DNA from: Escherichia coli
GTDB lineage: Bacteria; Pseudomonadota; Gammaproteobacteria; Enterobacterales; Enterobacteriaceae
Direction: 5' to 3' (one strand)
NCBI RefSeq assembly: GCF_017348835.2
Contig: NZ_CP071375.1
Length of the DNA stretch: 64,000 bases
Shown here: positions 1 to 6,000 of the stretch, one piece after another
Layout of the letters: the number at the start of each line of letters is the position of its first letter
Position numbering within the stretch: the first letter of the stretch is position 1
Made by a program: the position numbers

Positions 1-3000
1 ATACTGAAGCAGCGCACAAAAAATATTGCGCTACCGCCTCACACCCACCAGCAACAGAACCCACCACAGGAAAAGACGGTGGTCAGCATTGCCGTTGATC
101 CGGAGTCTCCGGAATCCTTCATGAAACGACCTAAACGTCGCCGCTGGGTAAATGAGAAATACACACGCTGGGTAAAGACACAGCCGTGTGCGTGTTGTGG
201 TAAGCCAGCGGACGATCCTCATCATCTGATTGGTCATGGTCAGGGTGGAATGGGAACAAAATCCCACGATATTTTCACGCTACCGCTGTGTCGGGAGCAT
301 CACAACGAGCTTCATGCGGATCCGCTGGCGTTCGAAGAAAAGCATGGTTCCCAGGTTGATTTAATTTTTCGTTTTCTTGATCACGCTTTTGCAACCGGCG
401 TGCTCGGGTAAAAGAGGTTACTGATGCGTATAGAGTTTGTTTTGCCTTACCCGCCGACGGTGAACACCTACTGGCGACGTCGTGGCAGCACATATTTTGT
501 ATCAAAAGCCGGTGAGCGTTATCGCCGGGCTGTGGCGCTTATTGTTCGCCAGCAGCGGCTGAAATTAAGCCTGTCCGGACGGCTGGCAATAAAAATTATT
601 GCAGAACCACCGGATAAGCGCCGCCGTGACCTGGACAACATTCTGAAAGCACCGCTGGATGCGCTGACGCATGCGGAAGTGCTCATTGATGACGAGCAGT
701 TTGATGAAATCAATATTGTGCGCGGTCAGCCTGTGCCAGGTGGACGGCTGGGCGTGAAGATTTACGAAATCAGAGGTGGTAACGATGGCGCGTGATATCC
801 AGATGGTTCTTGAGCGATGGGGGGCATGGGCAGCAAATAATCATGAAGATGTAACATGGCCCTCGATAGCTGCTGGTTTTAAAGGATTAATCCCGACTAA
901 AGTGAAATCACGTCCTCAGTGTTCTGATGATGACGCCATGATAATTTGTGGTTGTATGGCACGATTAAACAAGAATAATCAGTATTTGCACGATTTGTTG
1001 GTGGATTATTACGTAGGTGGAATGACATTTATGGCTCTTGCACGTAAGCATAGATGTTCTGATGGGCTTATTGGTAAAAGGCTTTATAAAGCGGAAGGTA
1101 TTATTGAAGGAATGCTTATGGCTCTGAATGTCCGGTTAGATATGGATATGCGGTAGGGATATATAGTGATGAGGGTTATGTTTTCTGTGTTTATAATTAA
1201 CATGTTTATTTTTTGATGGTCATGTATTGTGGAAGGTAGATAAAATGTTGCCTGGTGAATTGAAAATATTGATAATCAATCTTCATCATTAAATAAAAGG
1301 AGTGCTTATGTGGATTGTGTTAGTACTGTCACTGTCAACTCTCAGTTGGCATAAGGTAGTGGCTTTTTCATTGTTGACGGTGTCTGTTGTCCTGGCTGTG
1401 CTTAATGATATTATTGATTGGTCGGTGTTATTTTTTGTTGCTACAATCGTTTTTTTTATTATTTTGAAGTTCAACTGGAAATATAACGCCTGGGCTAAAT
1501 CTATATATGAAGTTGGCATAGTTTTATCAGCCATAGCATTATCTTTCCATCTATGGCCAGGGTTTCACAATCCTGTAGTGCTAAATTCTGTTACTGTTGG
1601 CCCTCAGAGTACTCCCTATACAATGTATTTTAATTTTGATAAAGCGCTGGTGCCATTTTTGTTAGTCCTGTGTACATCTTCTTTGTTTAAAAAAGAAGTA
1701 AAATCAGAAGTGTCTTTGTGGAAGTGGGGGGCTCTGTCGCTCTCTGTTCCTCTTATCCTGTTTTTGGCTGTTTTTTTTGGTGGATTAAAGCCAGAGATTC
1801 ATTTTCCTGAGTGGTTGCCAGAGTTTATATTGGCTAATTTGTTTTTTGTGTCTCTGGCAGAGGAATCATTATTTAGAGGGTATATTCAATCACGGCTATC
1901 AGAAGTAACGTCTCCATTGGTTGCATTAATTGTGGCGGCTTTGTTGTTTGGTTTTTATCACTATTCAGGTGGTGCTTTACTTGTATTATTTGCCACGTTA
2001 TCTGGTGTTGTGTATGGATTGTCATGGATGTGGAGTGGGCGTTTGTGGGTTGCCACCCTTTTCCATTTTGGTTTGAATCTGTGTCACTTGTTATTCTTTA
2101 CCTATCCATTTTTAAAACATAATTGATTTTTTCTATGGTTTTAAATTTATAAGACTGAAAAATAGCAGGACGTGACATTTGCATGAAAAATATGCACGGC
2201 AAAGCATTTACGTACGTAAAAAATCAGGTATGCTGTTAAGAGTGGTTATTTCGCCGCATAGCTTGACCCCGCCTCTGAGCGGGTTTTTTGTGCCCGCAAA
2301 GTAGCGCAGTGCGTTAAATGTGCTGGTAGTTATTAATACAGGTCTTTCAGCTTGCTGGCTTTTTCGGCAAGAGTTATTGGTGTGTCACGTTAACCGGAAA
2401 GGGTAAAAAGACATGCTGAAACAGCAGGATATGACAGAAACCGCCAGAGTTGTGTTTGATGAATTAAGCGTCACCGAACCGGCGACAGTCGGGGAGATTG
2501 CGCAGAATACTTACCTTTCACGCGAACGCTGCCAGTTAATACTGACCCAGCTTGTTATGGCGGGTCTGGCAGACTATCAGTGCGGTTGTTACAGACGCCT
2601 TCAGTCCTGAAGGCTTTTTTATTTGTGGTAAATGGGCGGCTGGTGGGTGTTAGCGGCACCTGTCAGTCCTTTGCTTATGTGTTGATGATAATTTACCTTT
2701 TGGGGCTATAATTGAACTAACCAATTGCTAATGAAAGTAAAATTATAATGGTTGTTGTCTGTTCAGTTATCATGGTTTGCTCCCCAATTAATATTTTTCT
2801 TGAAAAGGATACGTTGTCACTTAAGCCCGGCTCAGTCGTTCTGGCCACCAAATGCATCAGGGCGCTTTTCCTTATGCATTATGGCAAAGTTAAAATTTTC
2901 GATATAAACCATTCCATAGTAAGTCAATATCTGGAAATTCAGCATAAGCTGACAAGAACTCATCTGACTGACGTTCCGCTTTATCTGTCACTGGAACCCA

Positions 3001-6000
3001 ACAACCCTGCGTTGGCTGAGGCTTTAATTACCAGCCAGAGATTTTCCGGAGATACCACGGATATGTTTCTTATGATGGCATGCCTGTCGCTGTTTGAATC
3101 AGATGAACGGATATTATTATTTTTAAGTGGATGTTTATCCAGTATAAGTGCCAAAGTCAGGGCGATAATTCAGACAGATATATCAGCAAGCTGGACGCTT
3201 GGTGCGATTGCGTTACGCCTGCATATGAGTGAGAGTTTGTTAAAGATAAAACTGAAAAATGAAGGGCACATGTTCAGTCGCTTGTTGCTGGAAGAGCGGA
3301 TGCGTGTTGCTGTGAATATGTTATGTTCCCGGCATGGATATGGACAGGCTGTAGCAGAAAAATGCGGTTATTCAAGCTGGTCCTACTTTATTTCTGTATT
3401 TCACCGCTATTATGGCTTCCCGCCAGACAGATATGTATCCAGGCAAGGGCTTGATTATTGATTTTCATCTGATTATTATTTTTTGACCCGGCCCTTTAGC
3501 TCAGTGGTGAGAGCGAGCGACTCATAATCGCCAGGTCGCTGGTTCAAATCCAGCAAGGGCCACCATCACATACCGCCATTAGCTCATCAGGAAAGAGCGC
3601 CAGCTTTCGAAGCTGGTTGCGCGGAGTTCGGGTCCCCGAAGGCGGTCCATTATCTGTATCCTGCGTTGTTAGCTCAGCCGGACAGAGCAATTGCCTTCTA
3701 AGCAATCGGTCACTGGTTCGAATCCAGTACAACGCGCCACACTTATTTTCCCTGGCTCGCTTTTGCGGGCCTTTTTTTTAAATGTCTCACAATTCAGGCG
3801 GTTGACTGTTGTCTGGTTTGCGGGGAGTTTGTTAAAAGAAACTGGCATGGTGAATCCCCCTGTGCGGAGGGGCAATCAGCGAGTAGGTATATGGGATAAT
3901 CGCGGATTCAGGTGCTGGTACTGAATTCACCGGGAGGCACCCGGCACCATGCAATGGCACATAGCGCCACTCTCCAGCCCCTCTCCGGAGGGGCTTTCTT
4001 ATGGACAAAAAAAGCCCGCGCAGGGAGACGCGGGCGGCAAGGAATAAACAACAAAACGTGAAGTAATATTTCAGCTGGCGAATAATATCCGACAGTAATC
4101 ACTCTGCGCAATAGCGCGGCCTTTTTCGTATTGCGGGCTGTTGTCTCTCTTCTGCCATTGTCCTGTAACTTCCGGACTTCAGCCCGCTCCTCATTTTACT
4201 CACAATATTATCCCGGCCGGGAGGATTCATGGCATTTAAACACTATGATGTTGTCAGGGCGGCGTCGCCGTCAGACCTTGCGGAAAAGCTGACACACAAA
4301 CTGAAAGAGGGCTGGCAGCCGTTTGGTAGTCCGGTGGCCATAACCCCTTATACCCTGATGCAGGCGATTGCAGCAGAAGGTGATGTGGTGGTCAGTGGTG
4401 CAACTGAGCCGGATTGGTACTACGTCATCGTACTGGCCGGGCAGTCCAATGCAATGGCTTACGGTGAAGGGCTTCCGCTTCCGGATTCTTACGATGCTCC
4501 GGATCCGCGCATTAAACAGCTGGCGCGCCGCAGCACGGTAACTCCGGGTGGAGAGAGTTGTACGTATAACGACATCATTCCGGCTGACCACTGCCTGCAT
4601 GATGTGCAGGATATGAGTACGCTGAATCATCCGAAGGCAGACCTGAGCAAAGGGCAGTACGGCTGTGTCGGCCAGGGCTTACATATTGCCAAAAAACTGC
4701 TTCCGTATATCCCGAATAACGCGGGGATCCTGCTGGTACCATGCTGTCGTGGTGGTTCGGCATTTACCCAGGGCGCGGAGGGGACATTCAGTGCGGACAC
4801 GGGGGCCAGCCAGGATTCGGCGCGCTGGGGTGTGGGTAAACCGTTATATCAGGACCTGATTGCGCGCACCAAAGCTGCATTACAGAAGAACCCGAAAAAT
4901 GTGTTGCTGGCGGTGTGCTGGATGCAGGGAGAGTTTGACATGAGCGCCGCCACCCACGCACAGCAACCTGCGCTGTTTACAGCCATGCTGACACAGTTTC
5001 GTGCTGACCTCTCCGTGTTTAACGCGCAGTGCCATGGTGGCAGTGCTGCAGATGTGCCGTGGATTTGTGGTGACACGACGTATTACTGGAAAAATACATA
5101 CGCTACCCAGTACGACACCGTGTACGGCGGGTATAAAAACAGGGAGAGTGAGGGCGTTTATTTTGTGCCCTTCATGACAGACGGTAACGGCGTCAATACC
5201 GCCACTAACGCGCCGGCAGAAGATCCGGATATTCCGGCATCAGGATATTACGGTGCGGCATCGAGAACGAATGGAAACCAGGTATCATCAAACCGCCCGA
5301 CACATTTCAGTTCATGGGCGCGCAGGAGCATTATTCCGGATCGTCTGGCAACCGCTATTCTGAACGCAGCCGGGCGCACCTCAGCCTTCATCAGTGGTAA
5401 GGCACCGGAAATTAAACCCTCGCCCGGCGGCAACACGCCATCGGGTCCGTCTGCAGATACGTCCGTTCGCACAATCTCCCTGCTGCCGGCAGCCGGAGAG
5501 GCTGCTGCGCAGGGCTGGAGCATTAAGGATGGCGGAATTCAGTTGTCAGATGGTGTATTTAAGATCACCAAGCAGAGCAATAAAACCTGGTCCCTGACGC
5601 ATCCGGTGGATGACGCAATTACCCTGCTGACACAGGGCGGCAGACTGACCTGTAAGTTCCGCCTGTCAGGCGCACTGACCAACAATCAGTTCGGGCTGGG
5701 GATTTATCTGTATACGGATGCTCCCGTTCCTGATGGTGTGGCGATGACGGGTACCGGTAATCCGTTCCTGATGTCGTACTTCACTCAGACCACTGACGGC
5801 AGAGTGAATCTGATGCATCACAGGAAAGCCGGAAACACGAAGCTGGGGGAGTTCGGCGATTACGGTAACGACTGGCAGACGCTGGAGCTGGTGTTCACCG
5901 CCGGCAGTGCCACGGTTACTCCGAAACTGAATGGAGTGGCTGGCCCGGCATTCCAGGTTATAAAAGACAGTCTGACACTGGGACTGAATGCGCTGACGCT

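Follow-up and report, generated by a model that had tools for sequence, protein, structure and literature searches.

Psr proteins are AraC/XylS regulators that are confined to prophages, where they occur alongside effector loci and Pch regulators (reviews including PMC10877973). PsrA and PsrB raise the expression of GadE and YhiF, and in this way repress the type III secretion (T3S) system of the LEE (locus of enterocyte effacement); PsrB also makes cells more resistant to acid and binds at the promoters of gadE and hdeA (reviews including PMC10877973). Both are already known to connect cryptic prophages with the GAD acid-stress regulon and with T3S in enterohaemorrhagic Escherichia coli (EHEC). 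PsrB is z2104 in OI-57, PsrA (z1789) is its closest homologue with 90% identity, and PatE is z0321 (PMC10877973). We analysed a stretch of 64,000 nucleotides from the E. coli contig NZ_CP071375.1 (assembly GCF_017348835.2), hereafter the window, which carries near its start a gene for a 237-residue AraC-family protein, here called psr, preceded by a gene for a 65-residue protein.

The two open reading frames (ORFs) lie on the same strand, at 2413-2610 (+, 65 residues) and 2748-3461 (+, 237 residues), separated by 137 nt. The original prediction, made from the sequence, had placed them at the same positions and had read them as an uncharacterised AraC-family regulator paired with a small winged-helix protein. 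Our favoured account, with a probability of about 0.88, is that psr is an intact allele of psrA with its own promoter, that the small gene is a separate gene, and that the two became neighbours through cassette exchange.

Identity of the 237-residue regulator

A local tblastn search against loci from O157:H7 genomes gave 100% identity over 237 residues to the copy in the Sakai prophage Sp4 (ECs_1087 locus), and in the gapless EDL933 assembly the same protein record, WP_000261909.1, is itself annotated in CP-933M. At the DNA level, psr of the O157:H7 records was 99.9% identical to the window gene, with the protein unchanged in Sakai and EDL933. The protein was 90.7% identical to the EDL933 copy in OI-57 (Z2104, PsrB) and 37% identical to Sakai ECs_0287 in Sp1. 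The order of genes was also compared. A transcriptome supplement for EDL933 lists Z1786 (Q antiterminator), Z1787, Z1788, Z1789, three numbers that do not appear, Z1793, and Z1794 (holin); the window has Q, a CPBP gene, the small ORF, psr, three tRNA genes, an esterase gene, and a holin gene, which is the order of Z1786-Z1794. Of the 15 listed records with O157:H7 in their name, 13 had exactly two psr places and the other two had one; both copies were located in EDL933.

Because of the complete match to the Sp4 copy, the gene order, the 90% figure for PsrA and PsrB, and the number of paralogues, the 237-residue gene is very probably a psrA allele. The view of an uncharacterised regulator was accordingly abandoned, since the protein is 100% identical to an O157:H7 protein that fits PsrA. 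On this identification the main gene is already known: it is the published regulator PsrA of EHEC. The expectation that the gene would belong to the kind of regulator that controls virulence or acid-resistance regulons agrees, by analogy, with what is published for PsrA and PsrB. The setting is also the one described for Psr proteins: psr lies in a prophage, between Q and the lysis genes, and pchA and a TccP2-like effector gene are present in the same element. By every feature tested here (identity and prophage setting), the 237-residue protein is a member of the Psr family.

Family, fold, and composition of the 237-residue protein

The Pfam profile HTH_18 matched residues 155-230 with an E value of 9.1e-9, and HTH_AraC matched at 202-224 and 141-171. 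The C-terminal region of about 100 residues thus holds the double helix-turn-helix of the AraC/XylS family, to which the protein belongs; together with the location between Q and the lysis genes, this bore out the prediction of a prophage-borne, horizontally acquired AraC-family regulator. A sequence search of the PDB matched the DNA-binding domain of GadX (3mkl, E 1.5e-18). In the AlphaFold2 model, the DNA-binding domain was mostly of high confidence, with predicted local distance difference test (pLDDT) values of 74-96 by block and a target-normalised template-modelling (TM) score of 0.88-0.90 to 3mkl. The layout of PsrA is a β-rich N-terminal domain followed by the C-terminal double helix-turn-helix domain.

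Among the regulators of E. coli K-12, full-length identity to the psr protein was 35% for GadW, 31% for YdeO, and 29% for AppY, and GadX was 38% identical over 154 residues. The best NCBIfam matches were YdeO and GadX, both of which failed at the equivalog level: NF007407 (YdeO) scored 104.1 bits against a cut-off of 348 (E 8.9e-30; residues 1-229 on profile positions 1-230 of 253), and NF007432 (GadX) scored 88.5 bits against 500 with the C-terminal half alone. As both cut-offs were missed by a wide margin, psr was taken as a lineage apart from YdeO and GadX. In our searches this lineage was found in E. coli and Shigella only, and from these sequence comparisons psr appears to be a narrowly distributed prophage lineage within the GadW/YdeO/AppY/GadX subgroup of AraC/XylS.

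RefSeq names WP_000261909.1 a "helix-turn-helix domain-containing protein". In Sakai, ECs_1087 is annotated as a 195-residue version with an internal methionine start (locus L005, 18803-19390). Alignments from residue 1 to GadW, YdeO, and AppY, together with the phrog_1450 and YdeO profiles, support the start of the 237-residue protein at 2748. The exact window proteins fall in clusters of 2285 and 1869 members, so these ORFs are not due to chance. Three minus-strand ORFs within psr (46, 43, and 57 residues) had no support.

The predicted AT-richness and rare codons were both observed. The GC content of psr was 42.3%, with 38-40% over 2701-3150 (the first 400 nt), compared with 51% for the small gene and 55% for the downstream esterase gene. 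ATA accounted for 7 of 17 isoleucine codons and AGA plus AGG for 6 of 13 arginine codons.

Predicted transcription of psrA

The region upstream of psr contains several elements that resemble transcription signals. The first is an intrinsic-terminator-like hairpin at 2268-2290 (+), CCCGCCTCTGAGCGGG, followed by TTTTTT, with a folding free energy (ΔG) of -14 kcal/mol for 2255-2295. A GC hairpin with a T-run occurs at the equivalent position in the OI-57 and Sp9 loci, in surroundings that differ. It is likely that this hairpin is the terminator close to the late promoter that Q overrides, the tR'-like role being inferred.

An intrinsic terminator at 2597-2624 (+) overlaps the end of the small gene. 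It consists of a 7-bp hairpin (2597-2614; ΔG -10.5 kcal/mol, z -3.4, with 1 of 200 shuffled sequences folding as well) followed by TTTTTT. The TGA stop codon of the small gene (2608-2610) lies inside the 3' arm of the hairpin; that the gene ends in a terminator had been noted in the original prediction. This terminator was kept in eight loci, whichever gene comes next. Farther on, at 2638-2668 (+), there is a second, longer hairpin of 14 pairs followed by a T-rich stretch (ΔG -20 kcal/mol for 2630-2680, z -2.2). Across eight loci its 5' arm was invariant and its 3' arm, read on the plus strand, alternated only between G-C and G-U pairing, which suggests a structure at the RNA level, be it a further terminator or an element that stabilises the RNA.

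A promoter-like site, ATGATA-16-TATAAT, was found at 2685-2712 (+), on the left-hand border of the psr cassette, with a perfect -10 hexamer at 2707-2712. It was the top sigma-70-like site in 1100-4300, with 10 of 12 consensus matches. The psrB locus has an identical promoter region, and the psr locus of phage phiSTEC1575 retains the -10 hexamer too. Two further searches gave negative results: Rfam, at E <= 0.1, had no match inside 2413-3461 (tRNAs and STnc100 were found downstream only), and a repeat search over 2100-3500 returned only short two-copy matches, as chance would give.

From this anatomy, psrA would be transcribed from its own predicted promoter at 2685-2712, while transcription from upstream would be blocked by the two predicted terminators (2268-2290 and 2597-2624), perhaps together with the hairpin at 2638-2668. 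With its own promoter and terminators upstream, psrA would be expressed on its own in the lysogen. After induction, RNA polymerase modified by Q would read through all of the terminators and on through psrA, the tRNA genes, and the lysis genes.

The 65-residue winged-helix gene

The gene at 2413-2610 (+) encodes a stand-alone winged-helix protein of the phage family phrog_331 (E 6e-37, 126.7 bits, residues 1-64); RefSeq calls it "hypothetical" or "TrmB family". As for the predicted winged helix, the sequence evidence was weak and the structure prediction was confident. Pfam gave a match to TrmB (PF01978) with an E value of 0.0031 and 17.8 bits, and seven other winged helix-turn-helix families scored nearly as well. 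NCBIfam gave no match for the protein, and the best hit in a sequence search of the PDB (E 0.013) was uninformative. The AlphaFold2 model, built with 20 homologues, had a pLDDT of 90.7 and an H-H-H-β-β topology (three helices and a β-hairpin), and Foldseek matched it to winged helix-turn-helix domains of IclR, MarR, and Rrf2 proteins with query-normalised TM scores of 0.7-0.8. The 65-residue protein is thus modelled as a generic winged helix of the DNA-binding type.

More specific labels were also considered. Characterised TrmB regulators have a C-terminal effector domain that binds sugars. The 65-residue protein has none and is a winged helix alone; with a Pfam match below significance and no NCBIfam match, the TrmB label is unjustified beyond a generic winged helix. 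The controller (C) proteins of restriction-modification systems are small, all-helical Xre-type helix-turn-helix proteins encoded upstream of a methyltransferase or restriction gene. A classical C protein was discarded: the predicted fold of three helices with a β-hairpin wing differs, and only the position upstream of a methyltransferase, seen in other prophages, is similar.

The gene is under purifying selection, with ratios of nonsynonymous to synonymous polymorphism (pN/pS) of about 0.1-0.35 in the more divergent pairs and up to 0.59 in near-identical ones; 14 codons vary synonymously only, compared with 9 that show amino acid changes. Since pN/pS is low and the variation is mainly synonymous, the sequence comparisons identify it as a real coding gene. 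It is a separate gene, conserved in its own right, and the suggestion that it encodes an anti-regulator of the AraC protein found no support.

The small-gene module was present in 2153 of 5426 complete E. coli genomes (about 40%; 4689 places), compared with 725 genomes (1323 places) for psr. It was found in 55 phage records, including Stx2 phages, phiP27, 1720a-02, SfV, cdtI, and mEp460, and Salmonella, Klebsiella, Citrobacter, and Buttiauxella have homologues of about 80% identity. The proteins phiP27 L23 and Sakai ECs_1779 are 95-97% identical to the window protein and mEp460 gp52 is 51% identical. Each of the three is encoded by the first ORF after the Q region, as in the window; unlike in the window, a methyltransferase of the 1720a-02 family comes next instead of psr. 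Both in the window and next to psrB the small gene has an intact reading frame, whereas its copies next to psrA in Sakai and EDL933 have lost 1 nt, which shifts the frame after codon 49, and are annotated as pseudogenes (locus L005, 18343-18536; locus L009, 10674-10870).

These data bear on whether the 65-residue and AraC proteins work as a dedicated pair of regulator and anti-regulator, as the pairing in the original prediction implied. The genes are adjacent on one strand, 137 nt apart, both are intact in the window (the small gene also beside psrB), and 725 of 726 psr-bearing records had at least one place covering at least 80% of a combined query of small gene plus psr. However, about 72% of the small-gene modules (4689 versus 1323 places) are without psr, and the usual partner is a methyltransferase, held at a fixed spacing in three genera. 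The stretch between the small gene and psr holds two hairpins that resemble terminators, as well as a separate site that resembles a promoter, and in O157:H7 Sakai and EDL933 the small-gene copy next to psrA has a frameshift. O157:H7 is the serotype for which the reviews describe PsrA function, and because the small gene is a pseudogene there, PsrA presumably does not need the small protein. We consider a dedicated pair exceedingly improbable and no longer regard the two genes as a functional unit.

A cassette slot shared with a methyltransferase

The neighbourhood of the small gene was surveyed in 17 independent contexts. In all of them, irrespective of the type of Q, the ORFs that follow the Q region began with the small gene, sometimes with an extra gene in between. 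The next gene encoded a 349-352-residue DNA methyltransferase (PF01555, N6_N4) in 11 of the 17, psr in 4, and neither in 2. In eight measured loci the distance from the stop codon of the small gene to the methyltransferase start was 148-150 nt. The unit of small gene and methyltransferase was found in prophages of three genera, E. coli, Salmonella, and Klebsiella, and in phiP27, mEp460, and 1720a-02. Seven other methyltransferases were 75-95% identical to the enzyme of phage 1720a-02, which is very similar to M.EcoGII, an enzyme that is silent in lysogens and harmful under constitutive expression (PMC5778455).

When loci of the psr type were compared with those of the methyltransferase type, homology extended from about 2325 to about 2685 and then ended. 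As homology stops there, at the promoter-like site, psr together with its promoter appears to have replaced the methyltransferase as a cassette, the methyltransferase being the putative ancestral downstream partner. The adjacency of the small gene and psrA would then be a product of this cassette exchange. The exchange also illustrates how cargo is traded in lambdoid prophages at a place just upstream of the tRNA/stx position.

The same survey suggests another role for the small protein, namely to control or assist the late-operon methyltransferase, or late transcription; in the window it would then be a leftover that has no partner at present. The winged-helix gene and the methyltransferase are kept as a two-gene unit at a constant spacing of 150 nt in three genera and in phages; the small protein is under purifying selection and has a predicted DNA-binding-type fold, and the methyltransferase family is one reported as harmful when constitutive and silent in lysogens. 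On the other hand, an intact small gene is found in loci that lack the methyltransferase (the window, OI-57, KY1497, and locus L020), and the predicted fold of its product is unlike that of classical restriction-modification controllers. Its persistence in such loci would fit a function of its own, or it may only reflect recombination breakpoints that lie downstream of the small gene. We keep this role as a tentative possibility, on the unlikely side.

A broader role, which we hold to be decidedly unlikely, is that the small protein gates whatever cargo occupies the next slot as a DNA- or RNA-binding factor, be it a methyltransferase related to M.EcoGII, which is potentially harmful, psrA or psrB, or further downstream the tRNA genes and stx. 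If this were true, the intact copy in the window could modulate psrA, unlike the O157:H7 pseudogene, and in many lambdoid prophages, among them Stx2 phages such as phiP27 and 1720a-02, the Q-dependent late operon would begin with an unstudied regulator, the 65-residue protein. As a conserved, selected, and uncharacterised gene, the small gene reasonably merits a modest follow-up.

Weight of the evidence for psrA

Returning to the favoured account of an intact psrA allele with its own promoter beside a separate small gene, we note several points that weigh against it. The equation with Z1789 rests on gene order, the 90% figure, and the paralogue count, and not on a deposited Z1789 sequence. Reviews place psrA in CP-933N/OI-50, whereas both Sakai and the gapless EDL933 assembly have the identical gene in Sp4/CP-933M. 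The N-terminal domain of the psr protein was modelled by AlphaFold2 with low confidence (pLDDT 45-75), and the promoter and terminators are predictions from consensus or folding.

The discrepancy in location was followed through the related prophages. In Sakai and in gapless EDL933, CP-933N/Sp6, the published psrA locus, holds no AraC gene. Sakai Sp9 also has no AraC gene and carries the small gene and a methyltransferase instead. The late regions of similar prophages may have been mixed up in the old EDL933 assembly. The window is thus of some value for annotation, since RefSeq uses a generic name, Sakai has the truncated 195-residue version, and the literature locus (Z1789, CP-933N) differs from the position in the gapless assembly (CP-933M/Sp4).

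tRNA genes and codon usage

As predicted, tRNA genes lie just downstream of psr, three of them at 3490-3739, starting 28 nt past its stop codon. They are an ileZ-type gene with anticodon CAT (3490-3565, +; called Met by ARAGORN and tRNA-Ile by RefSeq and in Sakai), an argN-type tRNA-Arg(TCG) gene (3573-3649, +; ARAGORN), and an argO-type tRNA-Arg(TCT) gene (3663-3739, +; ARAGORN). A CAU anticodon that is modified to lysidine reads AUA, and tRNA-Arg(UCU) reads AGA and AGG.

A coupling of these tRNAs to psr itself was considered and rejected. The ileZ/argN/argO cluster also follows the methyltransferase gene, or precedes stx, in prophages that lack psr, so the link is not specific to psr. Rare codons occur in psr at 5.5 per 100 codons, only slightly more than in the Q gene (4.8), the highest value in a range of 1.8-4.8 for five neighbouring genes. 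In the simplest reading, the codon bias of psr follows from its low GC content, and the tRNA genes are a general feature of the late region.

Prophage setting

The start of the window is the late-regulatory region of a lambdoid prophage, with all of the late genes listed here on the plus strand. Upstream of the two ORFs lie genes for RusA (424-795, +) and the 123-residue Q antiterminator (785-1156, +). Q is intact in the window and has one amino acid difference from Sakai Q; in strain E2865, the Q gene is frameshifted (locus L013, 786-1156), although the first 10 kb are 99.2% identical to the window, beyond which E2865 diverges. Between Q and the hairpin at 2268-2290 there is a gene for a CPBP/CAAX-protease-like membrane protein (1302-2126, +), which is AT-rich (38% GC) and looks like a moron-like insertion; phiP27 has a GIY-YIG nuclease gene at the corresponding position. 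PADLOC returned no meaningful match for the CPBP, 65-residue, or Psr proteins.

Downstream of the tRNA genes, a match to the small RNA family STnc100 was found at 3816-4006 (+) with Rfam (138 bits, gathering score 47, E 3.6e-31). It is followed by a gene for a SASA-family esterase (4229-6079, +), by the holin, lysozyme, and Rz genes, and then by terminase, head, and tail genes. A PerC-family regulator gene at 9224-9538 (+) is identical to pchA (100% to Sakai pchA ECs_1091 over 105 positions, that is, 104 residues and the stop), and a TccP2/EspF-repeat effector gene lies at 32438-33190 (-), 95% identical to the E2865 copy. A single prophage therefore holds a T3S activator (pchA, an activator of LEE) and a T3S repressor (psr).

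A tRNA-Ser(TGA) gene at 34123-34210 (-) lies just past the TccP2-like gene, where large ORFs that do not look phage-derived begin; it is probably the attachment site of the prophage. The closest match to the prophage stretch 9000-33900 was the O103:H2 strain 12009 (98.7%), and O145:H28 genomes were likewise named as best matches to the whole prophage. The window prophage is an Sp4/CP-933M-like lambdoid element that carries pchA and a TccP2-like gene.

Comparison with known regulators

By structure, the best full-length matches to the psr protein were Rns, CsvR, and ToxT, AraC virulence regulators of two domains with solved structures (Foldseek E values from 2e-10 to 1e-5 over about 245 aligned columns), and matches to Rns by sequence went down to E 5e-16. 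These regulators differ from psr in being only 14-22% identical to it; the N-terminal model is of low confidence, so a fatty-acid pocket was not inferred from the structural likeness. GadW, YdeO, AppY, and GadX resemble psr in sequence, and all of these K-12 regulators act on gadE. PatE (Z0321 in CP-933H; Sakai ECs_0287) is likewise a prophage-borne AraC/XylS activator of acid resistance with the same two-domain layout, but it has only 37% identity and lies in Sp1, adjoining an insertion sequence (IS) remnant and outside the Q-tRNA slot.

A psr homologue of 89% identity was observed in phiSTEC1575-Stx2k, an inducible Stx2k phage, directly upstream of three tRNA genes and stx2k (locus L011, 3101-5782). 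From this arrangement, a Shiga-toxin phage can carry psr along in the same late transcript.

PsrB (Z2104, OI-57) is a closer relative, with the 90.7% identity extending over 237 residues, the same position, preceded by the small gene and followed by ileZ, and an identical upstream promoter region. Its locus differs in a DUF1133-type Q, the lack of a CPBP gene, and two tRNA genes instead of three, and the protein differs by 22 substitutions, five of which (R159Q, I170T, H177G, H199Y, and W214R) fall in the region of the DNA-binding domain. An alternative reading is that the window allele acts like PsrB, as a direct activator of hdeA and gadE that gives strong acid resistance, and not like PsrA. 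The high identity, a DNA-binding domain that is mostly the same, and the reported action of the Psr family on the same GAD regulon are in keeping with such a role. Nevertheless, the allele is 100% identical to the other O157:H7 paralogue and not to the Z2104 copy, and its differences from PsrB reach into the DNA-binding domain; we regard a PsrB-like allele as very improbable.

The closest described regulator is PsrA of Sp4/CP-933M, which has the same protein (100%), the same gene order, and the same type of prophage with pchA. The window differs from it in that its host is not O157:H7 and in that the 65-residue neighbour, frameshifted in O157:H7, is intact. By analogy with the O157:H7 proteins, the psrA of the window would most likely activate gadE and yhiF and repress LEE.

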